From Bacteroidota bacterium (lineage in GTDB: Bacteria; Bacteroidota; Bacteroidia; Sphingobacteriales; Sphingobacteriaceae): a DNA stretch of 64,000 bases. Position numbers and translations under genes: made by a program. Positions within the stretch are counted from its first letter, which is position 1. Every line of letters starts with the position of its first letter. The notes beneath the pieces are model-generated. The model had not been told where the DNA came from, ran no database searches, and saw nothing but the letters and a program-made list of their open reading frames with translations. Positions 359 to 33,386 of the stretch are shown piece after piece. Location of the stretch: NCBI GenBank assembly GCA_040389205.1, contig JAZKAL010000010.1, positions 99,697 through 163,696 of the forward strand. The letters are read 5' to 3'.

Positions 359-1687
359 TTACATTTTCGGCATCCGGCGCATCATGTTGGCCATGGCTGC
401 TGGGTTGCTCATTTGTTTCATTACTTTACGCATATCGTCAAACTGTTTCATCAGGCGATTAACCTCCTGGATGTCGGTACCCGATCCTTTGGCAATGCGG
501 TTGCGGCGGCTCGGGTTGATCAGGTCCGGGTTTTCTTTTTCCTTCGGCGTCATGGAGTTAATAATCGCTTCGATGCCTTTAAATGAATCATCGCTTACTT
601 CAACATCCTTCATCATTTTACCAACGCCCGGTATCATCCCCATCAGATCTTTCATGTTACCCATTTTTTTGATCTGCTGTATCTGGCCGTAAAAATCATT
701 AAAGTCAAATTTGTTCTTACGGATCTTGCGTTGCAGCTCGGCAGCCTCTTTCTCGTCGAACTGCTGTTGCGCGCGCTCAACCAGGGATACCACATCACCC
801 ATGCCCAAAATACGCGAAGCCATACGATCAGGGTGGAAAACGTCGAGCGCTTCCATCTTTTCGCCGGTACCAATAAATTTAATAGGCTTGTTAACAACCG
901 ACTTAATTGACAGCGCGGCACCACCACGGGTATCGCCATCAAGTTTAGTTAAAACAACACCGGTAAAGTCGAGGCGGTCGTTAAACACCTTGGCGGTGTT
1001 AACGGCATCCTGCCCGGTCATGGCATCAACCACAAACAATATCTCATGCGGGTTAACAGCGGCTTTAACCTGCTCTATCTCCACCATCATGGCCTCATCT
1101 ATAGAAAGGCGGCCAGCGGTATCAATAATAACTACATTATTACCGTTCTGCTTAGCCTGGGCAATACCCTCGCGCGCAATGGCAATAGGGTCTTTAGATT
1201 CAAGATTAGCATAAACCGGGATGCCTATCTGCTCGCCTAAAACCTGTAATTGGGTAATAGCGGCGGGGCGGTAAATATCATCGGCAACCAAAAGTGGCTT
1301 TTTGCCTTTTTGTGTTTTTAGGTAGTTGGCAAGCTTACCGGTAAAAGTGGTTTTACCAGCACCGTTTAAACCGGCTATCAAAATGATAGTTGGCGATGCT
1401 TTCAGCTCCAGCTCGGCAGTGGTGCCGCCCATCAGGGCGGTAAGTTCGTCGTTCATCAGCTTGGTTAAAAGCTGGCCCGGTGAAATAGAAGTTAGTACGT
1501 TTTCGCCTAATGCCTTTGTCCTTACATCATCTGTAAAGGTTTTGGCTGTTTTATAGTTAACGTCGGCGTCCAAAAGAGCTTTGCGAATCTCTTTCATGGT
1601 TTCGGCCACGTTTATTTCTGTAATTGATCCCTGGCCCTTCAGGACTTTAAACGCCCTGTCGAGTTTATCCGATAAATTTTCAAACAT
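359..1687 (-). CDS. ffh: Signal recognition particle protein Ffh
   Basis: MFENLSDKL start, GLNGAGKTT P-loop, DTAGR and TKLDGD GTPase motifs, Met-rich M domain. Confidence 0.98.
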   Translation of the reverse strand: MFENLSDKLDRAFKVLKGQGSITEINVAETMKEIRKALLDADVNYKTAKTFTDDVRTKALGENVLTSISPGQLLTKLMNDELTALMGGTTAELELKASPTIILIAGLNGAGKTTFTGKLANYLKTQKGKKPLLVADDIYRPAAITQLQVLGEQIGIPVYANLESKDPIAIAREGIAQAKQNGNNVVIIDTAGRLSIDEAMMVEIEQVKAAVNPHEILFVVDAMTGQDAVNTAKVFNDRLDFTGVVLTKLDGDTRGGAALSIKSVVNKPIKFIGTGEKMEALDVFHPDRMASRILGMGDVVSLVERAQQQFDEKEAAELQRKIRKNKFDFNDFYGQIQQIKKMGNMKDLMGMIPGVGKMMKDVEVSDDSFKGIEAIINSMTPKEKENPDLINPSRRNRIAKGSGTDIQEVNRLMKQFDDMRKVMKQMSNPAAMANMMRRMPKM

Positions 1688-25042: not shown

Positions 25043-28000
25043 ATGAAATACCTTTATTTAATATTAGCATTCGTTTGCTTTAATACCTTTAACGCATCAG
25101 CGCAGCAAAGGTCAATAAGCGGAACTATTATCGATTCTACCAAGTTATCCCTCCCTGGTAGTAACATCAAATTAAAAAACGAACTTGGCGACAGTACTGT
25201 AAGTATTGCCGATGTAAATGGCAAGTTCTCCTTCCCTGCTGTAAAAGGTTCTAAAATAACGCTTATTATTAGTTCGATAGGTTATGATGGGCTTATAAAG
25301 CATTACAACCTGCCTGCCGATGGTAAAGCCGTTGTGCTTGACCCCATCATATTAAAATCATCTATAAGGCAACTTGGCCAGGTCAATATTGTGGGTGTTA
25401 ACCCGGTTGTTTTTAAGGAAGACACCGTTCAGTATTCGGTATCGGCCTATAAGGTTCGTGAAAACGCCCCTATTGAGGATGTTTTGAAAAAGATCCCGGG
25501 AATTGATGTCGCCAAAGATGGTACGGTATCAGCCCAGGGAAAGCAAATAACAAAAGTGAGAGTAAACGGTAAAGACTTTTTTGGGGGCGATGTACAAAGC
25601 GCTACCAAGAACCTCCCGGCCGACGTTATAGAAAGTGTACAGGTTGTTGATGACTACGGCGACCAGGCAAACCTTACCGGTGTTAAAACCGGCGAGCCTA
25701 ACAAGATCCTGAACTTTACCATCCGTAAAGACAAAAACTACGGCTATTTTGGCCAGGCTACAGCAGGCGACGGCCGCGATTGGTTACCCAAACAAGATGG
25801 TGTTGATATAAAGAATGATAACCGTTATATAGGCCTCGTAAACTTCTTTAAATTTAAAGGCGACCAGCAGATCTCCGTTTTAGGTAACCTTAACAATACC
25901 AACGTAAACACATTTAGCTATGGCGCGGCAACCGGCGGCGCGGCAGGCGGCGGCGGTTTTGGTGGCGGCGGTGGTGGCCGTGGCAATGCGGCACGTGGCT
26001 CAAGCGGCTCTACAACCAACGCCAACGGTATTACCAATGCGCGCTCTATTGGTTTAAACTTTAGGGACCAATGGGGTAAAACATTATCGGTTTACGGTAG
26101 CTACAGCTTTAGTAATAATACTACATATACTAATTCGACCACGTTGCAAAACAACTTTGGTAACAACCCAAGCCAAAGCACCCAGGTTAGCCAGGAAACA
26201 AGCCAGCCAACCAATCACCGGTTTAATTTTAACCTGGAGTGGAAACCGGATACCCTTAACTATTTAAAGGTTACGCCGTCGTTTTCATACAATGCATCTG
26301 ACGTAACCAGTTTCGACGATCAGAAACTGGTTAGGAGAGATACTACAAGATTGGCCTATACGTCAAACTCCATAAGTAACTCAACCTCGCCAAACTATGG
26401 TTTAACAGGTTTTTTTAACCACCGTTTTAAACATAGCAAGCGTAATTTACTAATAGGTTTTAATGTAAGCACAAACAAAAGCTCGCAGTTTGATAACCCG
26501 GTGAATACTTACACTATTGGCGCGGGCACAACCCCGGCAAACCAGGTTATTTATACCGATAGCCGTACCAACACTTACGGCGCTAACGTATCATACCAGG
26601 AGCCAATTGGAAAAGTATCGTTCCTGGAGCTTAACTACGCGTTTAACCACAACTTTACATCAAGCGATAAAGAAACAGATACCCTTTACACCACCAATCC
26701 CGATCTGTACCGTAACTATTCCTTGTTAAGCAACAACTACAATTACACGTTTACTACCAACAGGTTTGGCCTTAATTATAGGGTAATAGAGAAAAAGTAC
26801 AACCTAACCTTAGGTGTTGGTGCACAACCGGCAAAGCTTGATGGGATAAACCTGAGCAACAATGTGTCTACCAGCGTATCTACCTTTAATGTTATACCGG
26901 CAGCAAGCTTTAATTATAACTTTAGCAGGAGCCAGGCATTGCGTTTTAACTATAATGGCAGCAGCAACCAGCCGGCATTTAACCAGTTGCAGCCGGTTCT
27001 TGATTTTTCGAACGCGTTGTACCCGGTACAAGGTAACCCTAACCTAAACCCCGAGTTTACAAACAACCTGTCTTTACGTTATAATGCGTTCAGCTTTCAA
27101 ACGGGTAATATATTCCTGGTTGGCTTAAACTTTTCACAAACCGATAACAAGATCGTTCAAAACACGGTGAACTATGCGTCGGACTTTAGCGCCGCTGCAT
27201 TGGCAGCCGACCCAAGTCTGGTTAACTTTAGAAACGCCACACTAATTAAATACTTAAATACAAGCGGCTACTACACTGCAGGGGCAAACCTTATTTACTC
27301 TAAGCCATGGAAAGAGCGCCGTTATACTTTAACATTTAACGGTAACGCCAGTTATACCAATAACATCGGCTTTTCGCAGAGCGTAGATGAAAATAACGTA
27401 ACCACGCCAATAGAGAAAAATATAGCGAAGACCCTTAGCTTGAGCCCACGCCTGGGTTTCAGGACAAATATTACCGATATAATTGACGCGGAGTTATATG
27501 GCAAATACACCGTTAGCAAAACAGATAATTCGCTAACTACTTTAGGCAATCAAAACACAAACATCCGCTCGCTGGAGCTGGGCCTAAATGGTAAAAACTA
27601 TGTTTGGAAAGATTGGACCGTAAGTTACGACTATACCAAAACATTAAACTACGGATATGACCAGGCAGTAAATATTAAAAACCCGAATATCTTAAATGCT
27701 TATTTAGAACGCAGGTTTTTAAAAGACCATCGCGGTACCATACGTTTAGCCGCATACGATTTATTTAACGAGAACACAGGCTTTTCTACCGTTACAAATG
27801 GTAGCACGGTTACACAAACAAATGTAAACAGGCTTGGCCGTTACTACTTATTAACCTTTACTTTCCGCCTGCAAAAATTCTCGGGCAAGGCACCATCTGC
27901 TGATCCGGGACGTGGCATGAGAGACGGCGGCGGGCGCCAGGGTGGTATGGGCGGCGGAATGGGTGGCCCTCCCCCTCCTCCGGGTGGCGGCCCGTTCTAA
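25043..28000 (+). CDS. Outer-membrane beta-barrel / TonB-dependent receptor-like protein with N-terminal carboxypeptidase-regulatory-like domain
   Basis: Signal peptide; plug-like EDVLKKIPGIDV, VNGKDFFGGD, NLPADVIESVQV; many amphipathic strands; GRYYLLTFTFRL end of barrel followed by a Gly/Pro tail. Confidence 0.88.
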   Translation: MKYLYLILAFVCFNTFNASAQQRSISGTIIDSTKLSLPGSNIKLKNELGDSTVSIADVNGKFSFPAVKGSKITLIISSIGYDGLIKHYNLPADGKAVVLDPIILKSSIRQLGQVNIVGVNPVVFKEDTVQYSVSAYKVRENAPIEDVLKKIPGIDVAKDGTVSAQGKQITKVRVNGKDFFGGDVQSATKNLPADVIESVQVVDDYGDQANLTGVKTGEPNKILNFTIRKDKNYGYFGQATAGDGRDWLPKQDGVDIKNDNRYIGLVNFFKFKGDQQISVLGNLNNTNVNTFSYGAATGGAAGGGGFGGGGGGRGNAARGSSGSTTNANGITNARSIGLNFRDQWGKTLSVYGSYSFSNNTTYTNSTTLQNNFGNNPSQSTQVSQETSQPTNHRFNFNLEWKPDTLNYLKVTPSFSYNASDVTSFDDQKLVRRDTTRLAYTSNSISNSTSPNYGLTGFFNHRFKHSKRNLLIGFNVSTNKSSQFDNPVNTYTIGAGTTPANQVIYTDSRTNTYGANVSYQEPIGKVSFLELNYAFNHNFTSSDKETDTLYTTNPDLYRNYSLLSNNYNYTFTTNRFGLNYRVIEKKYNLTLGVGAQPAKLDGINLSNNVSTSVSTFNVIPAASFNYNFSRSQALRFNYNGSSNQPAFNQLQPVLDFSNALYPVQGNPNLNPEFTNNLSLRYNAFSFQTGNIFLVGLNFSQTDNKIVQNTVNYASDFSAAALAADPSLVNFRNATLIKYLNTSGYYTAGANLIYSKPWKERRYTLTFNGNASYTNNIGFSQSVDENNVTTPIEKNIAKTLSLSPRLGFRTNITDIIDAELYGKYTVSKTDNSLTTLGNQNTNIRSLELGLNGKNYVWKDWTVSYDYTKTLNYGYDQAVNIKNPNILNAYLERRFLKDHRGTIRLAAYDLFNENTGFSTVTNGSTVTQTNVNRLGRYYLLTFTFRLQKFSGKAPSADPGRGMRDGGGRQGGMGGGMGGPPPPPGGGPF

Positions 28001-30199: not shown

Positions 30200-30553
30200 T
30201 TAAAATATCCATTCCATTTCCGACTCAAAGTAGTCAATTATCAGCGATTTTATCACCATCTCCTGCTCAAGCAGGGTGTAGTTGGGAACGACCTTTACCA
30301 GTTTCCAGTGTGGCCAGCCATCCTGGTCAAGCCCCTCCAGTTCATAAAACCCCATCTTGCTAAATAGCTTGCAATTGGCTATGTGCATCAGCTCTTCCTT
30401 TTGCCTTTTGCTAAACTTTTTTGGCCCCTGGCCAAGCTCCTGCACACCTATCAAAAACAACACAACTTTTATATCGGGTTTCTCGTTATCAAACTCGGTA
30501 GCAATTTTGTCTTGCAGGGCGGCCCATTTCAAATTGATCTCTGCGGGTTTCAT
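30200..30553 (-). CDS. Conserved hypothetical protein
   Basis: LFLIGVQELG, KEELMHIA and DGWPHW look like a conserved Bacteroidota small protein. Co-oriented with the cyclophilin gene, 16-nt gap. Confidence 0.8.
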   Translation of the reverse strand: MKPAEINLKWAALQDKIATEFDNEKPDIKVVLFLIGVQELGQGPKKFSKRQKEELMHIANCKLFSKMGFYELEGLDQDGWPHWKLVKVVPNYTLLEQEMVIKSLIIDYFESEMEWIF

Positions 30554-30653: not shown

Positions 30654-30661
30654 TACTTTTG
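30654..30661 (+). promoter_or_regulatory. -7 promoter box for the uORF-TonB receptor unit
   Basis: TACTTTTG, 28 nt before the TTG start. Confidence 0.55.
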
Positions 30662-30689
30662 CCATGTATTATTAAATACACAGCTTGTT

Positions 30690-31019
30690 TTGAAAAAAGG
30701 CACTTATCATATTTTTTGCGCATGGGCGCTAATGCTCTGTTTTATAACGGGGCAGTATATGGTTTTTGCCCATCAGCACAACATCATCAAAACAATACAC
30801 GCTAAAAATTGCGACGACTGCCATAACAGCTCAAAGCAGGAGTTTAAAGAAAAGTGCCAGCTTTGCGACAGCATGCACCATACATATATGGAGCTGCCCG
30901 GCAATAGTCAGTACGCGTTGTTTACTCCTGCCAATCATACCTACGTTACTTTTGAGTATGATTTTACCAGCATAGCCCTCATCCTATCCCAGGGGCGTGC
31001 TCCTCCTGTAGTTTCATAA
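30690..31019 (+). CDS. DUF2946/CruR-like upstream regulatory ORF (TM segment, CxxC, His, C-terminal RAPP)
   Basis: TTG start, hydrophobic N-terminus, HQH, CDDCH, CQLCDSMHH, GRAPPVVS-stop directly upstream of a TonB receptor. Confidence 0.8.
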   Translation: MKKGTYHIFCAWALMLCFITGQYMVFAHQHNIIKTIHAKNCDDCHNSSKQEFKEKCQLCDSMHHTYMELPGNSQYALFTPANHTYVTFEYDFTSIALILSQGRAPPVVS

Positions 31020-31039
31020 TACTACTATTAACTACTTAA

Positions 31040-31078
31040 CGCCGCATCAGGCGGTATTTCTTGTATTTTTTATTTTAC
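31040..31078 (+). terminator. Possible attenuator/terminator hairpin between uORF and receptor
   Basis: gccgc-atcag-gcggt followed by the T-rich tract atttcttgtattttttatttt. Stem is short. Confidence 0.35.
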
Positions 31079-31085
31079 TATTATT

Positions 31086-33386
31086 ATGAAACGTAAGCTT
31101 ATATATTGCTTTATATTTTTGTTTATTCAGATCTCTGCATTTGCAGATGTTATAGATTTTAAGGGTAAGGTTATTGATGCCAAAACTAAAGAGCCGCTTA
31201 TTGGCGCTACAGTTAACATACCTGATCTACGCCTTTCGGTTGCCACCAATGCCAACGGTGAGTTTTCATTTAGATCCATACCGGCAAAAGGCAGCTTTGT
31301 AGTACAGGTGCAATACCTTAGCTATAAAACCCTAACCCAAACGGTAGAATTTTCTTCAAATACCCCTTTAGTGTTTGCCCTGCAACCCAGTGTTATCGAA
31401 TCGCACGAGGTGGTAATTACCGGTACGCCTATTACATCGGGCAGCCGTAGTAACAGCACATCGGCATCGGTTGTAACTAAAGAGCAATTACAGATATCAT
31501 CCACCAATTTAATTGATGCATTGGCGAGGCAGGTGCCGGGTGTAAGCCAGATAACCACCAGCCAGGCCATATCAAAACCTGTTATACGCGGTCTAAGCTA
31601 CAACCGCGTAGTTACCCTAAATGACGGTGTTAAACAGCAAGGCCAGCAATGGGGCGATGAGCACGGTATTGAGATGGACCAGTTTGCTGCAGGCCGTGTT
31701 GAGGTTTTACGTGGTGCCGCATCGTTACAATACGGATCGGATGCATTGGGTGGTGTTATCAACGTGATAGATCCGCCGACGCCGTCAGAAGGTAACATAG
31801 CGGGAGAAGTACTAACCAACTACTCTACCAATAACGGGTTAAGCAATACATCTGTTATGCTAAGCGGTAACCAGAACGGTTTTGTTTGGAGGGGCCGTGG
31901 TACCTATCAAAATGCTTACTCATTTAACACGCCCGCAGGCCGTTATATTAACAGCGGCTTTAACCAGACTAACGCCAGCGGTATGTTGGGGTTGAATAAA
32001 TTATGGGGTTACTCACATTTAAATTTCTCTTATTTTAAAGACAACATAGGTTTTTACGATTCAGAGCCGGGCGACCCGCTTTACAACGATAACAAAAGCC
32101 GCACTATTGATTACCCGCGCCAGGACATACGCCACTATAAAGTTGCATTGAACAATAACTTTCAGTTTGGTGGCAGTTCGTTAAAATTAGATCTGGGATA
32201 TCAGAAGAACCAGCGCCGCGAGTTGGAGGACAATCCTACACCGAACCTGTTCTTCGATATGAATACTTATTCGCTTGATGCTAAATATTACCTGCCCGAA
32301 AGTAATGGATGGCACCCGGTAATTGGCTTAAGCAGTAGCCTGAGCCATAGCGTTAACCTCGGTGAAGAGTTGCTGATACCTGCTTATGACGAATACAGTA
32401 CAGGTGCATTTGTTTATGCCAAAAAGGTATGGGGCCAAAACACCTTTAGTGCAGGTGCCCGTTTCGATTACATTAAAAATAAAGGTAAAGCCCAGAACGA
32501 TGAAGCGGGTGACCCGATATTTGTTGGATTCGACAATAAGTTTTCTAACGTTAGTGCGGCCCTGGGTTACACCCACATCTTTAACGACGTACTAAGCTTT
32601 AAGGCTAATGCAGGTTCTGCCTTCCGTGCGCCAAACCCTGCCGAACTGGGAAGTAACGGTGTGCACGAAGGCACAAGCCGTTACGAAATTGGCGATGCTA
32701 ACCTTAGTCCCGAAAGAAGTTACCAGGCCGATGCGACGTTAGAGTACGGCTCGGGCTTTGTTACCGGTAGCTTTGGTATCTATGAAAACTACATTCATAA
32801 CTTTATTTACGCGTCAAACACCAATAAAGAACAAACAACTGTTATTGATGAAGGAACAGGGTTGCCAAGGGCGTATGATACCTACCGTTACGGACAGGTA
32901 AACGCTAACCTTTACGGGTTTGAAGGTAACTTAACACTGCATCCGGTATCATTCATTCATTTTGAAAATACATTTAGCTATACCAGAGCGCAGAATACCA
33001 CATTTGACAGGCCTTTGCCTCTGATACCTGCCGGTGTATTACATAACGCCCTGCGTTTTGAGCCTAAAATTAAAGGCATTAAAGACTTTTATTTTTATGC
33101 GGGTATAGATAACTTTTTTAAACAAAGCCGTGTTGACGCTACATTTGAAACACCTACAGATGGTTACACCTTGCTTAACGCTGGTGTAGGCGCAACATTT
33201 AATATTGGTAAACAGCCTTTAAAACTTTATGTATCGGGTACCAACCTTACCAATAAAGCATATTACGATGCCCTTAGCCGCCTAAGGCCGGGCCGCTACA
33301 GCCAGGAAGACCCTACCTACGGGGTTTACAACATGGGCCGTAACATAACCTTTGGGGTATACATACCCTTTGGAACCAATAAATAA
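31086..33386 (+). CDS. TonB-dependent receptor (probable metal uptake)
   Basis: Signal peptide, carboxypeptidase-like N domain, plug KPVIRGL, QQWGDEHG, EVLRGAASLQYGSDALGGVINVI, C-terminal GRNITFGVYIPF. Confidence 0.92.
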   Translation: MKRKLIYCFIFLFIQISAFADVIDFKGKVIDAKTKEPLIGATVNIPDLRLSVATNANGEFSFRSIPAKGSFVVQVQYLSYKTLTQTVEFSSNTPLVFALQPSVIESHEVVITGTPITSGSRSNSTSASVVTKEQLQISSTNLIDALARQVPGVSQITTSQAISKPVIRGLSYNRVVTLNDGVKQQGQQWGDEHGIEMDQFAAGRVEVLRGAASLQYGSDALGGVINVIDPPTPSEGNIAGEVLTNYSTNNGLSNTSVMLSGNQNGFVWRGRGTYQNAYSFNTPAGRYINSGFNQTNASGMLGLNKLWGYSHLNFSYFKDNIGFYDSEPGDPLYNDNKSRTIDYPRQDIRHYKVALNNNFQFGGSSLKLDLGYQKNQRRELEDNPTPNLFFDMNTYSLDAKYYLPESNGWHPVIGLSSSLSHSVNLGEELLIPAYDEYSTGAFVYAKKVWGQNTFSAGARFDYIKNKGKAQNDEAGDPIFVGFDNKFSNVSAALGYTHIFNDVLSFKANAGSAFRAPNPAELGSNGVHEGTSRYEIGDANLSPERSYQADATLEYGSGFVTGSFGIYENYIHNFIYASNTNKEQTTVIDEGTGLPRAYDTYRYGQVNANLYGFEGNLTLHPVSFIHFENTFSYTRAQNTTFDRPLPLIPAGVLHNALRFEPKIKGIKDFYFYAGIDNFFKQSRVDATFETPTDGYTLLNAGVGATFNIGKQPLKLYVSGTNLTNKAYYDALSRLRPGRYSQEDPTYGVYNMGRNITFGVYIPFGTNK

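Follow-up and report, generated by a model that had tools for sequence, protein, structure and literature searches.

The window analysed here, a stretch of 64,000 nucleotides (nt) from a Mucilaginibacter genome, contains a short upstream open reading frame (uORF), referred to below as the leader, followed on the same strand by the gene for a TonB-dependent receptor. All coordinates are those of the window and are collected in Table 1. The leader is read from a TTG codon and encodes 109 amino acids (aa); the receptor start lies exactly 66 nt past its stop codon. A previous reading made from the letters alone (the sequence-only reading) had pointed out an export segment, the motifs HQH, CDDCH (aa 41-45) and CQLCDSMHH, and R-A-P-P three codons before the stop, then a short GC hairpin, a T-rich stretch and, 66 nt past the stop, a TonB receptor with a WGDEHG motif, and every one of these features is present. 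On balance, the evidence leans towards a regulatory uORF of the CruR/DUF2946 type that is co-transcribed with the receptor gene, in which a ribosome stalled on RAPP would open a helix that buries the receptor AUG and a ligand would release the stall.

The conservation of the leader goes beyond what chance would produce. Its 45 close homologues, all from Mucilaginibacter or Sphingobacteriales, are invariant at M24, V25, H28, H30, E54, C56, C59, D60, M62, F92, S94, L99, R103, P105 and P106, and L97, S100 and G102 are nearly invariant among them. A profile search of 1.84 billion representatives extended the family to 92 clusters at 50% identity, all of them small proteins with a shared plan: a Lys-rich start, a hydrophobic segment that ends in Q...H-x-H, a single CxxC, and R-[A/G/S]-P-P. 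Homologues and clusters alike keep CxxC, RxPP and the spacing between them. The window leader follows this plan, with a Lys-rich start and then a conserved hydrophobic segment at aa 8-27. Across a set of 60 diverse members, C56 and C59 never vary, while the first CxxC, that of CDDCH, is confined to the closest relatives. CDDCH was also considered as a haem c motif and rejected on the ground that it is not conserved.

Most revealing is the distance from the second Cys of CxxC to the Arg of the arrest motif. It is 43 residues in 111 of 130 family proteins, 44 in 18 and 42 in one, and the stretch between CxxC and the tail is barely conserved in sequence but fixed in length. In the window leader, RAPP likewise stands 43 residues past CxxC and 3 residues ahead of the stop, and a tail of 2-8 residues follows RxPP in nearly all of the 130 proteins. 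The motif itself reads RAPP in 72 of these, RGPP in 30 and RSPP in 21, all three being described as arrest-competent or partly so (PMC12992588). The segment F-x-S-I-A-L-I-L-S-x-G just ahead of RAPP contains the conserved positions between F92 and G102 and would occupy the ribosomal exit tunnel during a stall.

Several lines of evidence connect this family with DUF2946. The window protein matches the Pfam family PF11162 at E 0.02, under the threshold. Of 60 diverse relatives, 20 match this family at E <= 0.1 (best 7.1e-8), and any other Pfam family was matched by at most two of the 60. When aligned by hhalign with 12 annotated DUF2946 proteins drawn from a published supplement, the family gave 76% probability (E 2e-5) over the CxxC region; the CxxC-RAPP spacing in these 12 proteins is 44-47. 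Additionally, and in line with the sequence-only reading, the leader possesses the traits of DUF2946/CruR, namely CxxC, a near-terminal RxPP, rigid spacing, a putative export signal and the first position in its operon. From these sequence comparisons, we read the leader as a divergent Bacteroidota branch of DUF2946/CruR with its own 43-residue ruler.

The start codon of the leader occupies a fixed site 27 codons ahead of HxH, where 42 of 70 unique loci have TTG, 22 have GTG and only 6 have ATG. Substitutions in codons 2-23 are distributed over the three codon positions as 448, 260 and 761, compared with 1417, 1285 and 1459 in an upstream control. Because codons 2-23 show a third-position bias and the upstream sequence shows none, the N-terminal segment is taken to be translated and the non-AUG start to be a conserved trait. 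The invariant Met24 was tried as the true start and rejected, given the coding periodicity of codons 2-23 and the conservation of the N-terminal segment in distant members. The conserved TTG/GTG start suggests selection for weak initiation. An AlphaFold2 model of the leader (pLDDT 55) is confident only for a helix at aa 3-39 and predicts the remainder to be disordered, so that the geometry of a metal site is not readable from this low-confidence model. Confidence limited to the N-terminal helix fits a leader peptide better than a folded protein.

The sequence TAnnTTTG is the promoter consensus of the Bacteroidota. Of the 70 unique loci, 66 have a box of this kind in the 80 nt that precede the uORF start, mostly 26-30 nt ahead of it, but only 7 have one between the 3' half of the uORF and the receptor start. 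Since such a box is conserved ahead of the uORF and not ahead of the receptor, leader and receptor are most simply regarded as co-transcribed. In three loci (L005, L042 and L044) the box ends only 7 nt ahead of a GTG start, and the mRNA of these loci may have little or no 5' leader. The window also has a small palindrome, located between its promoter box and the TTG start; orthologues differ in sequence at this place, examples being TACCGTTAAACGGTA and CATGT..ACATG. It could form an RNA hairpin or serve as an operator.

Table 1. Features of the leader-receptor locus in window coordinates
Feature	Coordinates	Strand	Basis or remark
-7 promoter box TACTTTTG (TAnnTTTG) of the uORF-receptor transcript	30654-30661	+	motif conservation
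Small palindrome/hairpin TGTATT-N4-AATACA in the 5' leader	30665-30680	+	read from sequence
Leader ORF (uORF), 109 aa, TTG start, TAA stop at 31017-31019	30690-31019	+	ORF list, sequence
Putative export signal/N-terminal membrane segment, aa 8-27	30711-30770	+	conserved hydrophobicity
HQH, aa 28-30	30771-30779	+	H28 and H30 invariant or nearly so
CQLCDSMHH, aa 56-64: CxxC with flanking Asp, Met and His; presumed ligand-sensing site	30855-30881	+	
F-x-S-I-A-L-I-L-S-x-G segment	30963-30995	+	conservation across close homologues
RAPP arrest motif, aa 103-106, followed by V-V-S and TAA	30996-31007	+	sequence
Outer helix, 5' arm GTTTCATAATA: V108, S109, stop and 2 more nt	31011-31021	+	fold, pairing tests
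Inner GC hairpin CGCC-GCATCA-GGCG, 4-5 base pairs, followed by TATTTCTTGTATTTTTTATTTT (T-rich)	31040-31055	+	fold
Outer helix, 3' arm TATTATGAAAC: holds the receptor ATG at 31086-31088	31082-31092	+	fold, pairing tests
TonB-dependent receptor, 766 aa, CarbopepD_reg, Plug and barrel; ZnuD/haem-receptor clade	31086-33386	+	
WGDEHG, receptor aa 189-194	31650-31667	+	sequence
Receptor H527	32664-32666	+	aligns with ZnuD H499

The region between leader and receptor is predicted to fold such that the end of the first gene pairs with the beginning of the second. In the minimum-free-energy fold of 30960-31130 (z = -2.8), the two arms of an outer helix pair over 11 base pairs (bp), with the GC hairpin nested inside. 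This helix was examined in the 70 unique loci, 50 of which have a short spacer of 47-83 nt. A stop/start duplex of -8 to -15.5 kcal/mol is found in about 33 of the 50 short-spacer loci (z about -2 to -6.6 relative to shuffles of matched composition). Compared with 130 control windows taken from its own locus, the stop region pairs best with the start region in 28 of the 50, including the window, where it ranks first. The arms vary in a compensatory manner, as in CATAACA/TGTTATG and in the combination of a TAG stop with CTATG, and where the tail ends in Ala, GCATAATAATAAT pairs with ATTATTATTATG. Three loci carry the TTTCAT complement within a longer coding tail, where it falls in another reading frame; this shift suggests that selection acts on the RNA and not on the peptide. 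A search of Rfam returned nothing credible (TarB, E 0.73).

When a MAFFT alignment was combined with a hand-specified structure, 77% of cells could pair compared with 33-53% when the partner was slid. In a covariance-model alignment of 58 hits, 79.9% of cells were paired compared with 35-54% with a slid partner, 9 of 15 pairs changed on both sides (a number reached by 7 of 500 shuffles), and the covariation score was 0.169 compared with at most 0.051 in controls. These covariance-model figures are supportive rather than conclusive, the alignment having been fitted to the model and the loci being related.

Counted from the first base of the P-site Pro codon, the distance to the beginning of the 5' arm is 7 to 10 nt, so a stalled ribosome would occupy most of this arm. 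In constrained folding, the probability that the AUG is unpaired was 0.05 for the free RNA, 0.27 with a stalled ribosome and 0.40 with a terminating ribosome. Because the conserved helix falls within the footprint of the stalled ribosome, unmasking of the start codon is the likely output, and not attenuation by Rho or a terminator. The sequence-only reading had set occlusion aside for Bacteroidota, but a conserved helix that buries the receptor AUG amounts in effect to occlusion of the start site.

The analysis shows the architecture, the signs of family membership, the gene order, and a helix that is conserved and covaries at a defined position; the arrest itself, the sensing of a ligand, the direction of regulation and the nature of the ligand are inferred. 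In the proposed sequence of events, the uORF would be translated at a low level from its TTG codon, its N-terminus serving as an export signal, and the ribosome would arrest at R103-A-P-P106 when Pro105 occupies the P site and Pro106 the A site. The CxxC/His cluster, which lies 43 residues earlier in the chain, would by then have just emerged from the exit tunnel. The arrested ribosome would cover the mRNA to about 31017 and melt the 11-bp helix, freeing the receptor AUG for translation. Binding of the cognate ligand to the nascent CxxC/His site would then release the arrest and allow termination three codons on, after which the helix would re-form and receptor synthesis would drop, a negative feedback for an uptake receptor.

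Several observations weigh against this interpretation. The window leader itself stays under the Pfam threshold, with 16.1 bits against PF11162 where the cut-off is 23.7. A subclade in which G-L-S-P-P replaces G-R-x-P-P and the Arg is lost (L021, L022, L025, L029-L034; P0059, P0077, P0078, P0081, P0109, P0128) questions a strict dependence on Arg; three loci of this subclade retain strong stop/start pairing, and arrest there may be brought about by the Pro-Pro pair alone. The duplex energy of the window, -11.7 kcal/mol, is reached by 26 of 577 crudely called same-strand gene pairs of the genome (4.5%), and since that many neighbouring pairs are equally stable, the case for the helix rests on its conservation and position and not on its energy. 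Because the core CAT/ATG and TAA/TTA pairs are also fixed by coding, the covariation is carried by the flanking pairs, and the loci used to measure it are phylogenetically related. When RNAalifold was applied to a plain MAFFT alignment of the 50 intergenic regions, no consensus structure emerged. Finally, no stop/start duplex was found in loci with spacers above 110 nt, and the helix is also absent from distant families. Because it is missing in both groups, it is best considered a lineage-specific output module and not a universal of the family. The long-spacer relatives without the helix (L004, L013, L049-L052, L055, L059, L062 and L068) have spacers of 120-160 nt and tails such as xANYSV, and immediately past the stop codon they share another conserved hairpin, AAAAGC-N5-GCTTTT.

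The composition of the region also bears on how the signal is relayed. Across 30900-31080, C exceeds G (GC skew -0.18 to -0.35), which resembles the rut region of cruR, counts against an output by start-codon unmasking and leaves room for a Rho-dependent component at the locus, as in Bordetella. The same sensor could in that case have a transcriptional output: the stall would block Rho, or would prevent the hairpin at 31040-31055 from terminating, and release by the ligand would end transcription before the receptor. CruR indeed acts through Rho, and an intergenic hairpin is conserved, being found in 49 of the 50 short-spacer loci with differing sequences and followed in the window by a T-rich stretch. 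The stems of these hairpins are nevertheless short (4-8 bp, mean 5.8 bp), the next 10 nt contain 5.1 T on average and in no locus 8 or more, and terminator-like sites in the region number 4 against 3.8 expected from shuffles. A conserved intrinsic terminator was rejected on these grounds, and with it the output through a terminator favoured by the sequence-only reading; the inner hairpin may instead seed the nested fold or cause pausing. Moreover, the hairpin begins 38 nt past the P site, beyond what the stalled ribosome would cover, and a transcriptional output leaves the conserved, covarying pairing of stop region and AUG unexplained. Overall, we regard a transcriptional output as unlikely.

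If sensing is set aside, the helix could couple the two genes in a plain way, with RAPP only prolonging its opening and metal control residing elsewhere, for example at the promoter. The location of the stop codon inside the 5' arm fits such coupling, as does the in silico freeing of the AUG by a terminating ribosome, and a weak TTG/GTG start would fix a low coupling ratio. What this explanation leaves unaccounted for are the invariant CxxC and HxH and the rigid 43-residue spacing, which persist across very divergent sequences, and the same kind of spacing in CruR is what makes copper control work; plain coupling is accordingly quite improbable. Least probable of all, to the point of being very doubtful, is that the product of the ORF works not as a regulator but as an exported peptide that binds metal, such as a chaperone in the periplasm or a partner of the receptor, in which RAPP serves the protein itself. 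The signal-like N-terminus and the conserved Cys/His/Met cluster would suit such a role, and if the chain were cleaved at VFA|HQH, as is possible, H-x-H would form a mature N-terminus resembling an amino-terminal Cu/Ni-binding (ATCUN) motif. These points have to be set against the disorder predicted beyond the N-terminal helix, the poor sequence conservation of a CxxC-to-tail segment whose length is fixed, and the near-terminal RxPP, which is only 2-8 residues short of the C-terminus in almost all of the 130 proteins. The RxPP motif class is, in addition, strongly avoided in proteomes except in arrest peptides (PMC12992588).

The type of receptor bears on what the leader might sense. Its closest solved structure is ZnuD (4RDR, E 2e-21), and OprC is not among its matches in the Protein Data Bank (PDB). 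Against TIGR01778, the model of the OprC copper receptor, it scores 32 bits where the cut-off is 472. Its best sub-threshold models are those of haem/haemoglobin receptors and ZnuD, the NCBIfam ZnuD model NF038289 giving 122 bits against a cut-off of 950. In the phmmer alignment, H193, which is part of WGDEHG, and H527 correspond to ZnuD H100 and H499, E192 aligns with the residue before H100, and E340 lies outside the alignment. The homologous His pair binds haem in receptors of the ShuA/HemR type, and the stretch around H527 resembles the FRAP/NPNL boxes of these receptors. In ZnuD, H100 and H499 are ligands of a buried zinc site (PMC4557270). A plug motif of the form QQWG-x-EH recurs in the receptors downstream of distant family members.

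The conserved ligands of the leader (HxH, CxxC, Asp, Met and His-His) would suit Cu, Zn or other soft metals. By homology, copper would be the default ligand, and given the type of receptor, zinc or haem iron would be a serious alternative. Sensing of zinc or haem iron is suggested because a ZnuD/haem-type receptor is combined with a Cys2-His ligand set. The idea of a different metal had been raised in the sequence-only reading; it is reasonable in view of the receptor clade, but the doubled CxxC offered as its ground does not hold, CDDCH occurring only in close relatives. We advance only tentatively, as a somewhat unlikely proposition, the fuller view that the Bacteroidota branch is a nascent-peptide sensor for a non-copper ligand (zinc or haem iron) that acts purely through translational unmasking of the AUG and in which the weak TTG/GTG start has been selected.

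The closest characterized counterpart of the leader is CruR (Bp2923), which lies upstream of bfrG/crtA in Bordetella pertussis and has Rho-dependent termination as its output (Roy et al. 2022, PMC9426467). The sequence-only reading had contrasted Bacteroidota with an occlusion of the Shine-Dalgarno sequence in Bordetella, which is not the output there. The CruR family, described mostly from Proteobacteria, is defined by CxxC, 45 intervening residues conserved within 1-2, an export signal and the first position in operons of TonB transporters (PMC9426467). CruR has been shown to arrest on RAPP in vitro, the P and A sites being occupied by the two Pro codons (EMBO J 2025, PMC12992588). Like CruR, the window leader is small, opens its operon and precedes a TonB-dependent receptor, and the predicted disorder described for CruR (PMC9426467) is seen in it as well. 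In contrast, its spacing is 43 residues where CruR has 45, its Pfam score is below threshold, and the intergenic region is 66 nt long compared with 162 nt. The leader also differs in possessing an additional conserved HxH, D-x-M-H-H and a non-AUG start, and where CruR has a mapped Rho-dependent terminator the window has an AUG-burying helix. Its host belongs to the Bacteroidota, in which initiation is not led by Shine-Dalgarno sequences, and the receptor falls in the ZnuD/haem clade and not in the CrtA/OprC copper clade, with no PepSY_TM gene at the locus. To our knowledge, CruR is the sole characterized metal-sensing arrest peptide of its type and is known from Proteobacteria with a Rho-dependent output.

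Other parallels concern the output and the arrest motif. In SecM-secA and MifM-yidC2, a ribosome arrested near the end of the leader disrupts a helix that sequesters the initiation region of the next gene. Similarly, the helix computed for the window sequesters a start site and overlaps the footprint of an arrested ribosome. The two arrangements differ in that the AUG itself is paired in the window where SecM/MifM pair the Shine-Dalgarno sequence, and in that release is proposed to occur by ligand binding rather than by Sec/YidC pulling. On the sequence evidence, the element would join a CruR-type sensor to a SecM-type output in a phylum without Shine-Dalgarno-led initiation. ApdA/ApdP likewise carry R-A-P-P near the C-terminus but are found upstream of protein-localisation genes and are without CxxC (PMC10951233). 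On the side of the receptor, ZnuD of Neisseria meningitidis (4RDR) is alike in its zinc ligands, H100 and H499, with which H193 and H527 align, and different in that the window receptor has an N-terminal CarboxypepD_reg domain and a sub-threshold NCBIfam score.

That uORFs with RAPP or RGPP stand ahead of TonB-dependent receptors throughout Gram-negative bacteria has been reported (EMBO J 2025, PMC12992588), and orthologues of the window ORF (for example WP_117383248.1 and WP_143020927.1) are catalogued there as a 'hypothetical protein' followed by a 'TonB-dependent receptor'. To that extent the element is already on record as part of a bulk list (PMC12992588). For its Bacteroidota entries, that paper assigns no family, states no rule for the spacing and describes neither the start codons nor an RNA structure. 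In the literature searched, we know of no description of a CruR-like branch with a 43-residue ruler, of the conserved non-AUG start or of the covarying helix that buries the AUG.

With a broad profile, a member of the family was found in 29 of 401 sampled Bacteroidota genomes (about 7%). The carriers belong to 19 of the 179 genera, to at least 11 families and to more than one class; with a narrow profile, members were found in 48 of 301 Sphingobacteriaceae genomes. The genome of the window contains one copy of the leader. A PF11162 search of this genome was uninformative, returning two weak, unrelated matches and missing the leader locus. The locus indicates that the CruR sensor design is present in about 7% of the sampled Bacteroidota genomes, and in Sphingobacteriaceae the sensor appears to be wired to another output, the occlusion of a start codon. 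This provides a simple model of translational control for a phylum whose initiation rules are poorly understood. The difference between rulers of 43 and 45 residues allows a comparison between the ribosomes of different phyla, and the type of receptor raises the possibility of zinc- or haem-responsive arrest peptides.

The genes that follow the leader are mostly receptors. A receptor gene lies downstream in 47 Mucilaginibacter/Sphingobacteriales loci, and wherever the downstream DNA of these groups was readable it encodes a CarbopepD_reg-Plug receptor. A Pfam scan of the downstream gene at six distant Bacteroidota loci gave a receptor of this kind at five and a porin-like barrel at one. At one locus (L097), a 157-aa exported protein rich in His, Asp and Glu is encoded between leader and receptor (953-1426, minus strand); it has no Pfam match and may be a periplasmic metal-binding partner. 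In loci related to it (L095, L099, L100, L102, L104 and L108), no receptor ORF appears directly after the leader either.

On the other side, a divergent gene for 117 aa (30200-30553, minus strand), which has no Pfam match, adjoins the leader and occupies the same position in the two relatives examined (L003 and L004). In these two relatives a gene for elongation factor P (EF-P) lies about 2.4-2.8 kb upstream of the leader (3050-3613 in L003, 2640-3203 in L004), and none was seen at the corresponding place in the window. The position of EF-P near a leader that would stall on Pro-Pro is probably a matter of core-gene synteny. Among the family search results, P0100, a repeat protein of 826 aa, matched the C-terminal segment of the leader seven times (LLVLKKGDSPPSD); this match is probably spurious and derived from a translated DNA repeat array. 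Further upstream in the window (25043-28000, plus strand), a 985-aa outer-membrane barrel protein has an internal run of Gly and a C-terminal tail made up of Gly/Met and five consecutive Pro residues (GGMGGGMGGPPPPPGGGPF).

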